In this document: positions 473-10,700 of the stretch, piece after piece
Layout: every line of letters begins with the position of its first letter
Numbering within the stretch: the stretch's first letter is position 1
DNA from: Candidatus Hermodarchaeota archaeon
GTDB lineage: Archaea; Asgardarchaeota; Hermodarchaeia; Hermodarchaeales; Hermodarchaeaceae
Length of the DNA stretch: 10,717 nt
Assembly: GCA_016839365.1 (NCBI GenBank)
Contig: JAEOUH010000051.1
Location: forward strand, 1-10,717
Reading direction: 5' to 3'
The notes under the pieces: generated by a model
The model's input: the letters and a program-made list of their open reading frames with translations, nothing else
The model's database searches: none
Told to the model about the DNA's origin: nothing
Program-made: the position numbers and the translations under genes

Positions 473-537
473 AACTAAGTATCTCCAAAGGTTAGATTCG
501 AATAGCTTCTTTTACTTATAGACTTATCCCGTCCCTA

Positions 538-894
538 TCAGGGTGGTAGCGGACTGATAAGTTGGCTGACCGCCAGCATGGCATAGAATAAGATCACGAA
601 GATGGCAATCAGCGACACAGCCGCAACTAAATAAATTGAATAGCGCATCCGTATGAGTCCTCCTATCAGACCCACAAACATGATGATGAGTAGGGCCACG
701 AAGGTGATCACCGCTTCCCAGGTTGGGAGTAGGGATTGAATCGGATCAATAACAACAAAGGGGTATAGTCCATAGCCGTAAGCAATTATCAAATACCCTA
801 AGGCGCCGCCAAATATGAGGAACAGTATAGTGGCGATTTGATCCAAAGGCTCTCTTGGTTCCTCTTCTGATTTGGTATCGTTCTCGGTATCCAT
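538..894 (-). CDS. Small hypothetical membrane protein, acidic N-terminus plus about 3 TM helices
   Basis: 118 aa; hydrophobic stretches at about aa 21-47, 62-81 and 87-110. ATG lies 6 nt after the upstream stop, with GGAG supplied by the last codons of the upstream gene. Tandem stops TGA TAG. Confidence 0.85.
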   Translation of the reverse strand: MDTENDTKSEEEPREPLDQIATILFLIFGGALGYLIIAYGYGLYPFVVIDPIQSLLPTWEAVITFVALLIIMFVGLIGGLIRMRYSIYLVAAVSLIAIFVILFYAMLAVSQLISPLPP

Positions 895-900
895 TTTTAG

Positions 901-1614
901 CTATTCTCCAGTCGGTTTGTATATGACAAGGCAGATGGGCACATTTGCGGCGACCCAGCTTTGATATTTGCCCTCATATTTCAAACCATAATCACGCTGA
1001 CCCTGATTACCGAGGATAAGAAAAAGTGTATTGGCTCGGGCCTGTTTGTAAAATCCGAGTAGCCATCGGTCTGTTCGGTGCAATAGTTTTTGGGCTAATT
1101 CTACTGGTGGACGGTTGGTGTGTTCTCTATAGAGGGTGTCAAAGTCAAGGAAATGGATGTAAAGGAAATCTGAACGGTTCAGTCGCTTCGCTGTTTCAAT
1201 GTAAGTCCTCATGTCAGTATCGGCTGAATGGAATATCGCCTGACCTGCATTCTCTCGCTGATCTTCGCGGTCTACACAAACTGCGGACTTTCCTTGGTGA
1301 ATGAGAAATGAGAATAGGTTGAAACCATCGGGACGATTTCCATGGATGAGCTCTCTGATGACATTGGTGGCATACCCATTTTCTGTATCAAGTGTCAAGA
1401 GCAGGTTAGCTTCTTTGAGTAAAAACTGAGGCTTGTGAAGGACAACTTCCAGTAACCCGAAGTTGTCCAAGTTGACTAAGACAACTCGTTCTGTGGGCGT
1501 AAAGGTTGATAAATTGAAACCTGGGGTTAAAACCGAAGGAGCTACTAAGCCGAGTTGGTGAAGAATGGTGGCGGGCATTTGAACCATTTGTCCTTCCATA
1601 TTTTCAAATGACAC
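901..1614 (-). CDS. Alkaline phosphatase superfamily (NPP/phosphodiesterase-like) core-fold protein with degenerate active site
   Basis: AlkP-core motifs in order: MPATILHQLG, RVVLVNLDNFG (cf. VVLIxxDGxG), DFLYIHFLDFD (cf. DFxFVHxxxxDxxGH), TDRWL, TLFLILGNQG (cf. TLxIVTxDHG), NVPICLV. GTG start with GGTGG SD-like motif upstream. Confidence 0.72.
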   Translation of the reverse strand: MSFENMEGQMVQMPATILHQLGLVAPSVLTPGFNLSTFTPTERVVLVNLDNFGLLEVVLHKPQFLLKEANLLLTLDTENGYATNVIRELIHGNRPDGFNLFSFLIHQGKSAVCVDREDQRENAGQAIFHSADTDMRTYIETAKRLNRSDFLYIHFLDFDTLYREHTNRPPVELAQKLLHRTDRWLLGFYKQARANTLFLILGNQGQRDYGLKYEGKYQSWVAANVPICLVIYKPTGE

Positions 1615-1634
1615 GGCTTTCCACCAGATTTCAG

Positions 1635-1673
1635 CTTAGAGCTAATCTAAGACCTTTTGTTGATTACCTAAAA
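1635..1673 (-). promoter_or_regulatory. Candidate promoter of the AlkP-like gene with a palindromic operator-like site
   Basis: TATA-like TTTTAGG at 1667-1673 (minus strand); CTTAGA-N5-TCTAAG at 1635-1651, near the expected start site. Confidence 0.35.
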
Positions 1674-1680
1674 GAGTTTG

Positions 1681-1722
1681 TTGGGATAACCGAGATGTGG
1701 GTTGAATCTGCGGTTATCTCAA
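1681..1722. repeat. Inverted repeat / hairpin at the 3' end of the CaCA exchanger gene
   Basis: TTGGGATAACCG-AGAT (1681-1696) pairs with ATCT-G-CGGTTATCTCAA (1706-1722): 8 bp perfect core GATAACCG/CGGTTATC, one bulge, one outer mismatch, 9-nt loop. Confidence 0.7.
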
Positions 1723-2900
1723 ATGGGCATCAATACGAGGATGAAGACGAATATTTGCATCAGTAATATCATCGCTCCCTCGTAAATGTCTACTTTCTGA
1801 TCATCTGTGAGTGCTCGTTTCAGGAACCATAACGATCCTGCGGCAGTAGCAAATTGAAGAAGGACAGCTACATCGAGTGGAAGGGGAAGAAATATTGCCA
1901 CTCCACCTACGATTAGGAGTAGTACCTGTGTGGTTCCACCCAATGTATTGCCAATCGCTATGTCGGCTTTGCTTTTGACAGCAGCGATTACAGCAATACC
2001 ATGTTCGGGGAGCGCGCCCACTGCGCCAATAATCAAGGCCATAATGGCAATGCGCTGGGTTTCAACAAAACCAAGTCCGGTCCATGGGACAAACTCGAAG
2101 CTCAATTCCACAACAGATGCTAACAAATAACCTGCAATGAAGATGCCTACGAAACCTACAATGGCTACCATTGCTGACGTTCGTTTTGTATGACGGGCTT
2201 TCGGACGAGCTTTATCCACCCTTTGTGGCTTTTTCACAGCATAGATTGCGTACAATATGTAGGATAAAACCATTAGAAGAGCTAGCACTGGTGGGAGGTA
2301 TACAAGCCCTGGAATCACTCCGTGAATGAGATGATCGATATAGAATAGAATGGCAAAAGCGAAAAGCAGTGCCATAACAACGATGGTCCATCTAATCAAA
2401 TCTGCATCGTCTTCAGCAACTTCACGTGGAACCTTTACAACTCCTGTTTTTCGTGTCGATATGACTACTACAATACCAAGGAGTAGGATGTTAAATCCTG
2501 CCGCCATTACAACGCTTAATACCGCAATTTCGACTAACTCAGGATTTCCTTGAGTGTAACCAGACCAGGCTGTAAGGGCACTAACCACGGCTTCAGGTGT
2601 ATTGGATGCGAGCGATGAGAGCACTCCAATGAAATAAGCGGTTAGACCGGCAATGGCTCCTAATGATTCTAATCCATCAATGGCAAGATGTGAGGCGCGA
2701 AATGTTAGCCAGACAGCAAAGGCCATGGTCCCAATGATAAGAATCAAAACGTTTTGGAACACGAAAAGCGAGAGGAGGAAAAAGATGAAAAGAACGAGTG
2801 CCAAGATTCCTTCCCGACGGGAGATATGAAAGGCTTTGTGAACCGTTGGTTCACTCGATAAAATATGGGAATCCCCATCATTATTGTCGGTGTCTGTCAA
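1719..2900 (-). CDS. CaCA superfamily cation exchanger (Ca2+/H+ or Na+/Ca2+ antiporter-like)
   Basis: About 11-12 hydrophobic segments and two alpha-repeats: GVLSSLASNTPEAVVS...AAGFNILL and GAVGALPEHGIAVIAAVKSKADIAIGNTLGGTTQ. C-terminal YEGAMILL resembles the CAX xxEGxxLL. TTG start is uncertain. Confidence 0.88.
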   Translation of the reverse strand: MTDTDNNDGDSHILSSEPTVHKAFHISRREGILALVLFIFFLLSLFVFQNVLILIIGTMAFAVWLTFRASHLAIDGLESLGAIAGLTAYFIGVLSSLASNTPEAVVSALTAWSGYTQGNPELVEIAVLSVVMAAGFNILLLGIVVVISTRKTGVVKVPREVAEDDADLIRWTIVVMALLFAFAILFYIDHLIHGVIPGLVYLPPVLALLMVLSYILYAIYAVKKPQRVDKARPKARHTKRTSAMVAIVGFVGIFIAGYLLASVVELSFEFVPWTGLGFVETQRIAIMALIIGAVGALPEHGIAVIAAVKSKADIAIGNTLGGTTQVLLLIVGGVAIFLPLPLDVAVLLQFATAAGSLWFLKRALTDDQKVDIYEGAMILLMQIFVFILVLMPI

Positions 2901-2910
2901 CGGAACCAGC

Positions 2911-4434
2911 TCAATGGGAGTATTGTTCTGTATCAGTCATTGTGCGGAGTAACATTCCCTCTACGGTGAAAGGCATTAAGCTTTTGGCAACATCAACAGC
3001 ATCCCTAAGTTTCCCACTAGTTTCCGAATAGATTGTTATAACTGGGTCTCCCTCTTTCACACGGGAGCCTACCTTGGCATGTAAATAGAGACCTGCGCCA
3101 TGAAACTTGGGTGTGCCTGCTGCTCTAGCGAGTCGCACCAAAGCTCGGTTTTGAAGAGTAGCGACGTATCCATCTGAGGGCGCTCGAAGAATAGAAGTGT
3201 GAGTTCCTATAGGAATCTCTGATGGTAGGATACTCGCCTTCCCATTTTGAGCTTCAATGATTTGGCGCATTTTCTCAAGGGCTTTGCCCGAAGCTAGAAT
3301 ATCTTTGGCTAATTTTCGACCAACTCCTCGTGGAGCCAGACCTCCCATTTCAAGAAGAATTCCGGCTAATCCTGTGGATTTTTCGATTAAGCTAGTTGGC
3401 CCTCCACCCATGAGGGTTTCTAAAGCTTCCTTAGCCTCAAGTGCTGGACCAATAGCATGTCCGACAGGTTGACTGCCATAGGTCATAGCGCAATGGACAT
3501 TAATTCCCAGCTCAGTTCCTACGGTAATGAAATCACGACTTAGTTTTCTAGCTTCTTCCATGGTGGTCACTTTGCACCCTTCACCAGTTGGAATGTCCAA
3601 CACCAAGTGCTGGATTCCAGTGGAGAGTTTCTTTGCCATGATCGAAGCAATCATTTGAGGACGAGGATCAATTTGCAGTGGGTGCTCGACTTGAATAAAG
3701 AGATCATCAGCAGGCGCTAGATTTAAGGAACCACCCCACACAATGGCGGCTTTTGTGTTTTTTACAATTCTCTGTAATTCTTCGACACTAAACTCAACAT
3801 CAGCAAGCACCTCCATGGTGTCAGCCGTTCCACTGGGGCTAGTTATTGCCCGGCTACTTGTTTTGGGAATTAAGAGCCCAGCGGCTGCGACAATAGGTAC
3901 GATAATCAATGACACCTTATTTCCTGGAACCCCACCGATGCTGTGTTTGTCAAACACATTTGTCCCAAAGTCGAGTTGTTCACCCTCTTCTGCAATAGCA
4001 CGAGTCAAATGGACCGTTTCCTCCAAAGTCAATCCGCGGATGTGTTCAGAAACTAAAAATGCCGAAATATCGATATCTGACAGACGACCTGCTACAAGGT
4101 CCTCTACGATGGCGTGAATTTCTTCTCCTGATAAAGCCAATCCATCCATCTTTTTTCGAATAGCCTTGATGGAAGTGGGTTTAACATCACTACTAACCTC
4201 TACTAAATCTCCATCCTTAACATGTAATTCTCGTTGAACCTCATTTAAGATTCCGACCTGTCCTGAATCAACGAGCGAAGTAGACTCGGCGATGGCGACT
4301 GTTTCTGACTTTCTGTATTTGAGCAGGACGCGTTCGCCTGCGAACATCGCCAAATGAGTAATATCAACGGGGTTGAGTAAGATTTTGTGGACACTACCTG
4401 TATCCACGTCAACAATTTGTGCTTTCAACTTCAA
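2911..4434 (-). CDS. deoA: AMP phosphorylase (archaeal thymidine phosphorylase-like, nucleoside monophosphate phosphorylase)
   Basis: 507 aa with the ~85 aa N-terminal extension typical of AMP phosphorylases. Motifs DKHSIGGVPGNK, IPKTSSRAITSPSGTADTMEVLA, WGGSLNLAPADD, QPVGHAIGPALEA. GGAG upstream of the TTG start. Confidence 0.95.
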   Translation of the reverse strand: MKLKAQIVDVDTGSVHKILLNPVDITHLAMFAGERVLLKYRKSETVAIAESTSLVDSGQVGILNEVQRELHVKDGDLVEVSSDVKPTSIKAIRKKMDGLALSGEEIHAIVEDLVAGRLSDIDISAFLVSEHIRGLTLEETVHLTRAIAEEGEQLDFGTNVFDKHSIGGVPGNKVSLIIVPIVAAAGLLIPKTSSRAITSPSGTADTMEVLADVEFSVEELQRIVKNTKAAIVWGGSLNLAPADDLFIQVEHPLQIDPRPQMIASIMAKKLSTGIQHLVLDIPTGEGCKVTTMEEARKLSRDFITVGTELGINVHCAMTYGSQPVGHAIGPALEAKEALETLMGGGPTSLIEKSTGLAGILLEMGGLAPRGVGRKLAKDILASGKALEKMRQIIEAQNGKASILPSEIPIGTHTSILRAPSDGYVATLQNRALVRLARAAGTPKFHGAGLYLHAKVGSRVKEGDPVITIYSETSGKLRDAVDVAKSLMPFTVEGMLLRTMTDTEQYSH

Positions 4435-7734: not shown

Positions 7735-9066
7735 CTAGATGAGGCCTTGGCTTTGGAGCTTTTCGATTTCCTTGAATTTCTGTGGTAGGTACTCCTCGGT
7801 GACGTAGCTTAAGCCATACCGACTAAATGCCTGTTGTTCAGCTTTTCTTTCATTCTTCAGGAATAGTTTCAATTCCCTTTGCCAAAACTTTGTTTGATAG
7901 CGGGGGTCTTTCAACAGATCCTGCGTGCGTTTCTTATCGGTGTCAGTGAACGCGTCACTAGGCAGATCGTATCGCTGGATATCTGAAGCCCATACGCCCA
8001 TCCAAACGGCATCCGGGGTCGCTAACCCACGTAAGTGGGCTGCTGAAGCACTTCCGGAGATGATGACCATAGCAATGTGAGCACCCCAAGGATCTGCGTC
8101 AACAAAAAGAAACGTAGGGAGATTCAACTCATACCGTAGGCGTCGAATCGTTCGTCGAACACTTCGGGGTGCCTGGCCTGCTGTGTGAATTAGAAGGGCA
8201 TTTTGTGTTTCGTGTACGCCATCTTCGACAAATCGGGTAAACATCCCACCCGATTCGATTGCAATAACTTTCTTGGCTTTGCATCCGATGAATTTTGCAG
8301 AAGTTAGGTAGGGACCAATCATGAGCCCGTCAGGATGATCTGTACAATTGACCCGTTTACCTGCATATTTAGGAGGAGCGGTATACTCGATGGTAAGATC
8401 TCCGTAAATGGCCGCTCGTTCTTCGGGAAAAACTCGAAAGGATTCTCGAGGCGTTTTTAATTTTGCTTCGACATCGGTAATGGTGGTATCGCTTTCACTC
8501 TGTTGACCAAATTTCACGCCATATCCAAATGATTGATAGTAGATGTCTCGAAGCGTGCTTGATTTCCCTTCCGATAAGAGTTCTTTTAGAAATCGCATCA
8601 CCCAAACGAGTTGACTAAAACTACGAATTTGACCAACGTTCCTAGTTGACCGAGTAACCGTTTTCCCTGCCAACACATATTGACCTAACTCTTGATCAAA
8701 TCGGATATTCCCTGTACTGCGACTTGGTAGCTCAATCTCTGGAAATTCTCCCTTTGAGAGAGTTCGGTATAAGTTTTGACCAAGACCCTGCATATCTACA
8801 CGTATTTGGTCTGGAGTTTTTTGTTCTTCTTTGAACGCTTTAGGCTCCTTTCTGATTTGGCTGATTCGTTTTGCTTCTCCCTTAACCAATCGCCACTCAA
8901 GCTGTCCTCCAACCTTGCGAGCCTCAATTAATCCTTCTTCTTCCATCTTCTTCAGGAGTCGCCGAAGCTGCCCTGAATCGATTTTCAGTGCTTTTGTAAG
9001 GCGCCTTGTAGCCTTCCAACGCCGTGTAAGCTGTTTGAGAATTAAGTCAGGTGTTACTTCAGACAT
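7735..9066 (-). CDS. top6A: DNA topoisomerase VI subunit A (Spo11 family) with N-terminal extension
   Basis: LPSRSTGNI, STLRDIYY (catalytic Tyr region), QSESD, TOPRIM IAIESGGMF and FVDADPWG, TAGQAPR, KAEQQAF; directly downstream of top6B. Confidence 0.97.
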   Translation of the reverse strand: MSEVTPDLILKQLTRRWKATRRLTKALKIDSGQLRRLLKKMEEEGLIEARKVGGQLEWRLVKGEAKRISQIRKEPKAFKEEQKTPDQIRVDMQGLGQNLYRTLSKGEFPEIELPSRSTGNIRFDQELGQYVLAGKTVTRSTRNVGQIRSFSQLVWVMRFLKELLSEGKSSTLRDIYYQSFGYGVKFGQQSESDTTITDVEAKLKTPRESFRVFPEERAAIYGDLTIEYTAPPKYAGKRVNCTDHPDGLMIGPYLTSAKFIGCKAKKVIAIESGGMFTRFVEDGVHETQNALLIHTAGQAPRSVRRTIRRLRYELNLPTFLFVDADPWGAHIAMVIISGSASAAHLRGLATPDAVWMGVWASDIQRYDLPSDAFTDTDKKRTQDLLKDPRYQTKFWQRELKLFLKNERKAEQQAFSRYGLSYVTEEYLPQKFKEIEKLQSQGLI

Positions 9067-9083
9067 TTTCCTTCTCTCCGTGT

Positions 9084-10700
9084 CTAATAATCCTCCTCGC
9101 CCTCGAAATCATCGGGGTTTTCTACATTCGGCGGAGCTTCCTCTAAAAGCCCCTCTTCTACAGGCAGCTCTTCTTCAACTTCCTCCTCTGCTTCAAGTTT
9201 TATCGTTAAAGCACTCTCAACCAATGCTTTCGTGTCAGGAACTTTTCGTTTACCTGCTAAGGCGGCAATATCACGAGCGATTATGGGGAGATATTTTTCA
9301 TAGACGCTAGCTCGTACGCGCTCACGCTGAACCCGTTCTTTTTGGCGCAAATGCCCTTTTAGACTCCGGGCACATTCCATTAATCCCATACGAATATCGT
9401 GCTCTAACTCGGTAAGATCTGCGATGAATTCTTTTCCAGCCGTTTTGAAAGGAATTTTGGTGCTCACAACGGCGACAAAGGCCGCAATAGGCATTCCTGG
9501 TCTTATCCGATACCGCGACCAAGGAATAGCACGGATAACTTTGGCAGCCACATCCTTGTATTCATCAAAAATCAAAGGAATCCGATTTGCAAATCGATAG
9601 ATGATTATCGATTCCTTTGGGGGGACATCACCGCCATAAGCCAGACCGCATTCAACGATGAACGGGTGACCTCCGTAACTATTTGGCGGGCGTTGGGTTA
9701 CTTGGACAAATTCGGGGTTGAGTGTTGAATGAATGCCCGTTTCAAGAAGTTTCGTGCCTAGGGGTGAAAGAACTCGCGCATCTGGTGGCAACCATTTTTC
9801 AAAAGTCTCGAATCCCCGAGCGATCTTGACTAAGTCATTGGGCTTGAGCCCTCGGGGATCTTGTGAAAATGGCATGTTAATGGTTTTTAGAAATGCTTTA
9901 GCGGTTTTCGGTCCTACTCGGTGGAAATGGGTTCGTAGAAACGTCACCATATCTCTAGTCTTGGTTTCTTCGACCACACGTGAAAGTTGTTCGATATCCA
10001 TTCCCTTTGGATGGGGATTAACCGACTGTGGGGGTGCGGGTAATGACTTCACTGTTCGTTTGTATTTATGCACCGTTCCATCGGGTTCTGTGAAGGTTAA
10101 GTTGGCATAAGGTGTTATGAGGGCGGTCTGTTCGATGTAATCCAGTATATACCGTTTGGCTGTGCGCCAGTTCCCCTCTAGGGTAAATTCAAGCGTACAC
10201 CCATGCTCATCGTTTCGATTCTTACGGCGTTCCCATTTCATGAGTTCTGGTTTGTTTTCTTCAATATCTTGTCGGAGTAGGACTTCGAAGACATGGTCGC
10301 CACCCACGGGAGCAGAAGTCACATGCAATGGTTCGCTTGTGGTGATTTGTCCAAAGAGAAAGGCCATCTTTCCTCCCAGGCCAAACCGTCCTCGCGCTTG
10401 TTTGTGTTCATATTTTGACCCGTATAGGATTTGACCAAAGGCGGGAAGAATATGGTCTCGGGGAACGCCAATCCCGTTATCCTCTACGCGTAAATTATAC
10501 CAATCGGGTGCGACTTCCTTCAGTTTGACATCAATTGTTGGGAGAAATCCTCCATCCTCGCAGGCGTCGAGGGAATTCTCAACGAGTTCGCGGACTGCCG
10601 TGTACAGGGCTCGCATAGTATTATCAAACCCAGCGATTGACCGGTTGCGATAGAAGAAATCGGCTGGGGATATTGACTCAAACGTCACAGTTGTGGTCAT
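9084..10700 (-). CDS. top6B: DNA topoisomerase VI subunit B
   Basis: ISPADFFYRNR, GHKL motifs ELVENSLDA / VEDNGIG / GSKY..QARGRFGLG, PHPKG, H2TH RVGPKTA, RFANRIPL, WSRY (WKxY-like), STKIPFKTAGKE; acidic C-terminal tail. Confidence 0.98.
   Translation of the reverse strand: MTTTVTFESISPADFFYRNRSIAGFDNTMRALYTAVRELVENSLDACEDGGFLPTIDVKLKEVAPDWYNLRVEDNGIGVPRDHILPAFGQILYGSKYEHKQARGRFGLGGKMAFLFGQITTSEPLHVTSAPVGGDHVFEVLLRQDIEENKPELMKWERRKNRNDEHGCTLEFTLEGNWRTAKRYILDYIEQTALITPYANLTFTEPDGTVHKYKRTVKSLPAPPQSVNPHPKGMDIEQLSRVVEETKTRDMVTFLRTHFHRVGPKTAKAFLKTINMPFSQDPRGLKPNDLVKIARGFETFEKWLPPDARVLSPLGTKLLETGIHSTLNPEFVQVTQRPPNSYGGHPFIVECGLAYGGDVPPKESIIIYRFANRIPLIFDEYKDVAAKVIRAIPWSRYRIRPGMPIAAFVAVVSTKIPFKTAGKEFIADLTELEHDIRMGLMECARSLKGHLRQKERVQRERVRASVYEKYLPIIARDIAALAGKRKVPDTKALVESALTIKLEAEEEVEEELPVEEGLLEEAPPNVENPDDFEGEEDY

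Follow-up and report, generated by a model that had tools for sequence, protein, structure and literature searches.

An additional winged-helix domain at the N-terminus of a topoisomerase VI A subunit in a Hermodarchaeal genome

The top6B-top6A gene pair and its translation start

The window analysed here, a stretch of 10,717 nucleotides from a Candidatus Hermodarchaeota archaeon, carries on its minus strand the genes for both subunits of a topoisomerase VI (Topo VI), with top6A directly after top6B (Table 1). The top6A reading frame, 7735..9066 (-), encodes 443 residues, the length given in the original prediction. Its ATG (9064-9066) lies 17 nt from the top6B stop codon (9084-9086), and the purine-rich stretch that had been noted ahead of it is seen in the spacer. 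In translation, Top6B ends in an acidic C-terminal tail of 36 residues (9087-9194). The order top6B then top6A recurs at every orthologous locus for which upstream sequence was available, and the two genes are predicted to be co-transcribed. A TTG-started open reading frame of 159 aa on the opposite strand, 8831..9310 (+), spans the top6B/top6A junction and most likely only shadows these two genes.

Table 1. Features of the top6B-top6A locus in window coordinates.
Feature	Position	Strand	Basis
top6B, 538 aa	9084..10700	-	GHKL ATPase and transducer; Pfam HATPase_c, Topo-VIb_trans E 1.7e-53
Spacer, 17 nt, holding putative ribosome-binding site GGAGAGAAGG (9070-9079)	9067..9083	-	Sequence
Predicted extra winged helix-turn-helix, Top6A aa 5-61	8884..9054	-	AlphaFold2; Foldseek/VIA; sub-threshold Pfam wHTH matches; dN/dS about 0.11
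Charged linker, predicted helical, aa 62-89	8800..8883	-	Alignment A2; predicted helices
Canonical Top6A body, aa 90-443 and stop codon	7735..8799	-	phmmer to 2q2e_A aa 18-366, E 7.8e-63; NCBIfam Top6A profiles
5Y-CAP catalytic winged helix (TP6A_N), aa 148-212	8431..8625	-	Pfam PF04406 E 1.8e-17
Toprim domain, aa 267-430	7777..8268	-	Pfam PF21180 E 5.5e-52; E271, D323, D325 invariant

The features that define a Top6A are all present: a 5Y-CAP domain with its tyrosine, a Toprim domain with the glutamate and DxD motif, and a Top6B partner. The Tyr176/Tyr177 pair, encoded at 8536-8541 (-), is invariant in 24 orthologues, and the surrounding STLRDIYY aligns with STLRELYY of 2q2e. Judged by its sequence, the protein is a bona fide, catalytically intact topoisomerase VI A subunit. 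Alignment to Top6A profiles and to Methanosarcina mazei Top6A begins only at aa 83-101, which agrees with the original placement of the canonical sequence from about aa 85, and because aa 90 aligns with aa 18 of the M. mazei protein the window's Top6A has some 72 additional residues at its N-terminus. Solved full-length archaeal Top6A chains have 369-389 residues against the 443 here, as expected if characterised archaeal Top6A proteins are shorter.

Several observations bear on whether this extension is made. In 19 orthologous genes a start codon is aligned with Met1, the frame is open across the 85-codon region with no stop, and a purine-rich GGAGG-type site, together with the top6B stop codon, stands ahead of the long start. 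The dN/dS ratios (Nei-Gojobori, three lineages) are 0.11-0.15 for the N-terminal domain, 0.03-0.09 for the linker and about 0.02 for the catalytic core; with dS close to saturation (1.1-2.2) and values taken from unsaturated pairs only, they are rough estimates. On this basis the N-terminal segment appears to be a protein-coding domain under purifying selection, evolving about five times faster than the core. It could be argued that translation starts instead at Met92, with the upstream frame an annotation artefact, given that an in-frame ATG is present at codon 92 of the window's gene and that the N-terminal region is broken in one relative (G110). However, Met92 is replaced by leucine in the closest relative (L003) and is missing from the Jordarchaeial and f20 genes, while the 91 upstream codons are open and conserved at the protein level with dN/dS about 0.1 in three lineages, in 19 genomes the long start has a ribosome-binding site ahead of it, and the segment is predicted to fold with confidence. 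We therefore rejected the Met92 start, on its lack of conservation, the retention of the long start with its ribosome-binding site and the purifying selection upstream, and consider it extremely improbable.

The relative with the broken N-terminus, which is of the same genus as the window's archaeon (G110; L014 / L051, on G110:C2, CAYFXY010000002.1), lacks the wing owing to a deletion or frameshift of about 59 nt at about L051:2500-2700; its frame breaks off behind KKLEK and picks up again at SEAKRIQ, and the catalytic body is intact. Either the assembly is wrong here or the domain has been lost naturally. A separate frameshift splits the f18 orthologue (L023, G028:C297) near aa 330, into pieces of aa 4-332 and 329-443.

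Fold and distribution of the N-terminal domain

An AlphaFold2 model built from a 25-sequence alignment of the N-termini has helices at residues 6-12, 20-27 and 31-43 followed by strands at 47-52 and 55-60, with pLDDT >90 for residues 11-60. The original reading of residues ~5-61 as a helix-turn-helix of three helices and a wing is thus upheld, and the extension is not predicted to be disordered. After the wing, helices are predicted at 62-80 and 85-93 with pLDDT about 58; the charged linker that had been noted behind the domain would accordingly be helical, and its conserved positions are E64, A65, I71, E74, E81 and I88. The full-length Top6A model, computed with a shallow alignment of 24 sequences, gave pLDDT of only 30-45 for the body.

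Foldseek searches of the PDB with the N-terminal model, the structural check suggested at the outset, returned winged-helix regulators of the ArsR/SmtB, HlyU, NolR and MarR types with probability 1.00, TM about 0.6 and rmsd of 1.4-2 Å across about 65 residues. VIA, which is independent of Foldseek, matched SmtB with Z 11.3 and rmsd 2.2 Å over 76 residues, including the post-wing helix; the HlyU match has rmsd 1.4-2.2 Å over 65-74 residues. In comparison with SmtB (1R1T), HlyU (4K2E) and MarR (5H3R), the model shares all three helices, the beta-hairpin wing and the next helix (Z 10-11, rmsd about 2.2 Å, 74-76 aa). The window's domain differs from the ArsR/SmtB and MarR regulators in its low identity to them (14-23%), its fusion to an enzyme and the lack of an evident metal or effector site; unlike SmtB, it has no N-terminal helix preceding the aligned region.

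Residues 1-90 alone gave no Pfam match above the gathering score. The sub-threshold matches were all to winged helix-turn-helix families (MarR_2, HTH_24, HTH_5, HTH_27, TrmB and PadR, E about 1e-3), with 19.2 bits for MarR_2 (cut-off 27), 17.6 for HTH_24 (21.9) and 17.8 for HTH_5 (22). These scores make the domain a remote relative of the winged-helix clan that falls within no single Pfam family. The orthologue P0094 has precomputed matches to PF01022 (HTH_5) and PF12840 (HTH_20). A feature search of the ESM Atlas with aa 1-72 gave matches of 0.85-0.86 throughout, under the meaningful level.

The domain is conserved in more than 20 orthologues, with identities within it down to 24-43%; this conservation, together with the purifying selection, indicates that the N-terminal segment is not a chance extension. 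Residues conserved in all lineages belong mostly to the fold core (W17, L38, G45, E48, G54, W58 and L60), with L56, W58 and L60 alternating as core-facing residues; two exposed arginines, R15 and R59, are conserved throughout as well.

A survey of Top6A N-termini, which had been proposed together with the original prediction, placed the domain in a single Asgard Top6A clade. Full-length matches among 201 Asgard genomes were restricted to the window's own genus (82-94% identity, in family f1), f20 (62-63%), f7 (59-60%) and one f18 genome. The carriers are labelled Hermodarchaeota/Hermodarchaeum yapensis and Jordarchaeia/Jordarchaeales, with some bins named Odin, Thor, Hod or Frey. The extended clade spans Hermodarchaeia, Jordarchaeia/Freyarchaeia and a further two or three groups of Asgard archaea. 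In f6, f11, f26 and f27 the orthologues have the canonical start, as do the second copies found in f7 and f20. The nearest relatives outside the Asgard archaea are Bathyarchaeia Top6A proteins (55-59% identity), in which the domain is never present: in 64 non-Asgard loci, mostly Bathyarchaeia, the open frame leaves room for only 34-56 residues ahead of the conserved PSR motif, whereas the extended forms have 111-114 there. Within a database of 5.8 billion proteins there were 22 clusters with at least 64% identity, of 434-449 aa, and among the matches listed all those at or below 61% identity were of 339-374 aa. When 1.84 billion representatives were searched with a profile of the N-terminus, no more than four clusters were fused to Top6A, one of which (P0018) is a fifth, divergent lineage; the rest of the matches were to proteins with several wHTH domains or to small winged-helix proteins that stand alone.

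In a maximum-likelihood tree built from aa 90-443 only, the extended proteins are monophyletic (SH-aLRT 99) and group with Bathyarchaeia (support 86). Because the extended forms make up one clade and have a restricted distribution, the domain was gained once, in the ancestor of that Top6A clade. Fusions of this kind, which might have proved common, are rare on the evidence of these searches. The database name of the extended proteins is 'DNA topoisomerase IV/VI subunit A' only, and a literature search found no paper on the Top6A winged-helix domain.

The window's own genome holds no close paralogue of the domain (best other match 18.5 bits). The domain's nearest free-standing relatives are winged-helix proteins of 59-105 aa on short contigs of small unannotated open reading frames. 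Those at L032:201-419 and L123:1929-2132, of 67-72 aa, have the LSxxW, EG.VE and WRL motifs in common with the Top6A domain, and the many small unannotated frames on their contigs have a virus- or mobile-element-like appearance. It is possible that these proteins are relatives of the domain's source.

Asgard archaea have a conserved, eukaryote-like Top6A, and some lineages have extra Top6A/Top6B pairs related to those of other archaea (PMC12680538), probably acquired by transfer (PMC12680538, Nat Ecol Evol 2025). From its sequence relationships, the window's Topo VI belongs to these extra, Bathyarchaeia-like and probably transferred pairs. It is a second pair beside the conserved one, which lies in the same genome at L002 (G000:C17:44090-48163). 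There the Top6B-like gene has 25% identity to the window's Top6B, and the Top6A (L002:1354-2589, 411 aa) has 31% identity to the window's; the first ~55 residues of the latter are rich in serine and arginine, contain no winged helix and are probably disordered. In Jordarchaeial and f20 genomes there are two operons of Bathyarchaeia-like type, each with a top6B of its own, and only one of the two encodes the winged helix. In the second operons (L033-L038, from G053, G017, G082, G076, G056 and G006) the Top6A has 49-60% identity and no winged helix. Among the extra copies, a single sub-clade carries the domain. Neither a winged helix nor an extended N-terminus came up in a text search of the main text of PMC12680538. 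The extended enzyme co-occurs with another Topo VI in nearly all genomes searched, the two exceptions being incomplete genomes (83-86% complete), and this co-occurrence points to specialisation.

A same-genus orthologue of the window's Top6A (L124, G106:C122:8800-11891; ORF 531..3092 (-)) contains an intein of roughly 490 aa, with splicing-domain, LAGLIDADG and HTH_3 matches, at the start of the Toprim domain near IAIESGG; this contig ends before the Top6A N-terminus. Conserved-type Asgard Top6A matches often lie within open frames of 700-1589 aa (for example G104:C41, G182:C91, G200:C47 and G027:C14), which may represent inteins or large fusions.

Surface charge, Top6B tails and candidate functions

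The original prediction described the extension as an extra DNA-binding module. The domain and its linker do appear to be translated, and a recount agrees with the 15 Lys/Arg against 8 Asp/Glu stated for aa 1-61, but the proposed function is only partly supported, because the domain is neutral and its helix 3, the recognition helix, acidic in the Jordarchaeia; a basic charge is specific to some lineages. Net charge ranges from +7 to +14 in the Hermodarchaeal domains and from +11 to +13 in f20, against -1 to +1 in Jordarchaeia and f18, where helix 3 is acidic. The Hermodarchaeal basic segments are LRRLLKK in helix 3, RKRGG at the wing tip (in most species) and RRWKATRR across helices 1 and 2, and a strongly basic helix 3 and wing (LRRxLKK, RKRGG) are found in Hermodarchaeia, f20 and P0018. 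The Top6B tails vary as well: besides the acidic 36-residue tail of the Hermodarchaeal proteins, there is a short, mildly basic and non-acidic tail in f20, and one of about 150 residues in Jordarchaeia and f18 (L017-L020, L023), in which a long acidic tract is followed by a lysine-rich one. Either DNA binding was not ancestral to the domain, or it has passed to the lysine-rich Top6B tails in the lineages with neutral domains.

The repressor fold of the ArsR/MarR type, and the HTH_5 and HTH_20 matches of P0094, might suggest a sequence-specific DNA-binding domain that targets the enzyme to sites or autoregulates the top6BA operon. The exposed helix-3 positions 32, 33 and 37, however, vary within the genus, the charge of this helix changes sign between lineages, and dN/dS is five times that of the core; in addition, the model aligns to SmtB residues 45-121 only, and the extra N-terminal dimerisation helix of SmtB is absent. 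We consider a sequence-specific role improbable. The variation in helix 3, combined with the basic surfaces, fits nonspecific DNA binding and not operator recognition.

A sensor of left-handed or otherwise unusual DNA, similar to the Z-alpha domain, would be a sensible addition to a topoisomerase, and the domain has an invariant tryptophan (W58) in a wing strand. The hallmarks of ADAR1 Z-alpha are an asparagine and a tyrosine in helix 3 and a Pro-Pro-x-Trp motif in the wing. Against this, helix 3 of the window's domain (SGQLRRLLKKMEE) has neither Asn nor Tyr, its wing reads GGQLEW, no lineage has the Asn, the Tyr or the Pro-Pro, and the alternation of L56, W58 and L60 turns this tryptophan towards the core. 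Pfam z-alpha gave no match at E up to 1, and no Z-alpha chain was found among the Foldseek and VIA matches listed. This reading was rejected, since the helix-3 and wing residues that it requires are absent, and is in our view highly improbable.

A different possibility is that the winged helix is a protein-protein module and not a DNA-binding one, docking on Top6B (for example its C-terminal tail or its hairpin) as a latch or regulator, or, as a variant, recruiting the enzyme to another factor such as chromatin proteins, SMC or the replisome. It is the fold and the linker that are conserved across orthologues and not the charge, the linker has conserved amphipathic positions, and the N-terminal extension of Spo11 binds Rec102/Rec104 at the same junction (PMC11746154). 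The adjoining Top6B tails are moreover lineage-varying appendages, acidic in Hermodarchaeia and both acidic and lysine-rich in Jordarchaeia and f18. In f20, however, a basic winged helix accompanies a short non-acidic tail, so that charge pairing is not general, and the closest structural matches are all DNA-binding repressors. A complex prediction for full Top6B (alignment A3) with Top6A aa 1-72 gave a score of 0.00, which speaks neither for nor against binding. We regard such a protein-docking or regulatory role as a serious rival, although a somewhat unlikely one.

The reading that we favour is that the winged helix is an accessory element for binding the DNA arms. In M. mazei Topo VI, the winged-helix region of Top6A engages the small helical hairpin in which the Top6B stalk ends, and in the cryo-EM structure the DNA arms that flank the gate segment touch the whole stalk, as far as K471/K475 near the A-B junction (PMC13040014). 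The canonical N-terminus of the window's Top6A would be located where Top6A meets the stalk and its hairpin, with the DNA on either side of the gate segment running along the stalk; it is because of this arrangement that we propose an arm-binding role. Tethered about 28 residues before the junction, the winged helix could reach the arms. There it may act as a sequence-nonspecific binder that raises the affinity for DNA or tunes the recognition of bends or crossovers, and the second Topo VI would in this way become specialised relative to the other Topo VI of the cell.

We put the probability of the arm-binding role at about 50%. The nonspecific-binding pattern favours it, and it is made plausible by the basic helix 3 and wing in Hermodarchaeia, f20 and P0018 and by the similarity of the model to DNA-binding repressors. 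Against it, all the invariant residues but R15 and R59 are typical of the fold core, the basic character is lost in some lineages, as judged from the neutral Jordarchaeial and f18 domains with their acidic helix 3, and the wing deletion in G110, in which the core is intact, is either an assembly error or a sign of dispensability. That the winged helix gives this second, horizontally acquired Topo VI a DNA-geometry preference different from that of the conserved Asgard Topo VI in the same cell, for instance for particular crossings, bends or chromatinised DNA, is a more doubtful proposal, which we regard as unlikely.

Comparison with known topoisomerases

In type IIB topoisomerases, the reading of DNA bends and crossings is attributed chiefly to elements of Top6B. 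If the arm-binding reading is true, an accessory winged helix on the A subunit, next to its junction with Top6B, would add a new means of tuning substrate choice, and a preference for particular DNA geometries would make this a type IIB topoisomerase sub-functionalised through a DNA sensor on its A subunit, in parallel to the C-terminal domains that distinguish gyrase from topo IV. The enzyme itself is catalytically ordinary and its clade is small, and DNA-binding additions to topoisomerases are a familiar theme. The domain nevertheless sets one clade apart among the extra Topo VI pairs kept beside the eukaryote-like enzyme, and so bears on why Asgard archaea maintain two or three Topo VI enzymes.

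The window's Top6A shares the 5Y-CAP tyrosine and the Toprim glutamate and DxD motif with the proteins of M. mazei (2Q2E/9O8P), S. shibatae (2ZBK) and M. jannaschii (1D3Y). As in these archaea, its gene stands directly after top6B and its Top6B-binding segment follows from aa ~90; the difference lies in the ~72 extra residues, which would form a second, non-catalytic winged helix and a linker helix. Among such additions, the plant Topo VI partners RHL1 and BIN4 are accessory DNA-binding appendages, and M. mazei Top6B, at 621 aa, is longer than the window's Top6B, which lacks the Ig-like C-terminal domain of the M. mazei subunit. By analogy with that domain and with the C-terminal domains of GyrA and ParC, the winged helix is also a non-catalytic addition that could engage flanking DNA; it differs from them in fold, in subunit and in terminus. 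The N-terminal extension of Spo11 is found at the same terminus of a Top6A-family protein, at the junction with a B-like subunit (PMC11746154), but is a short helical segment for protein contacts, whereas that of the window's Top6A is predicted to be a folded winged helix.
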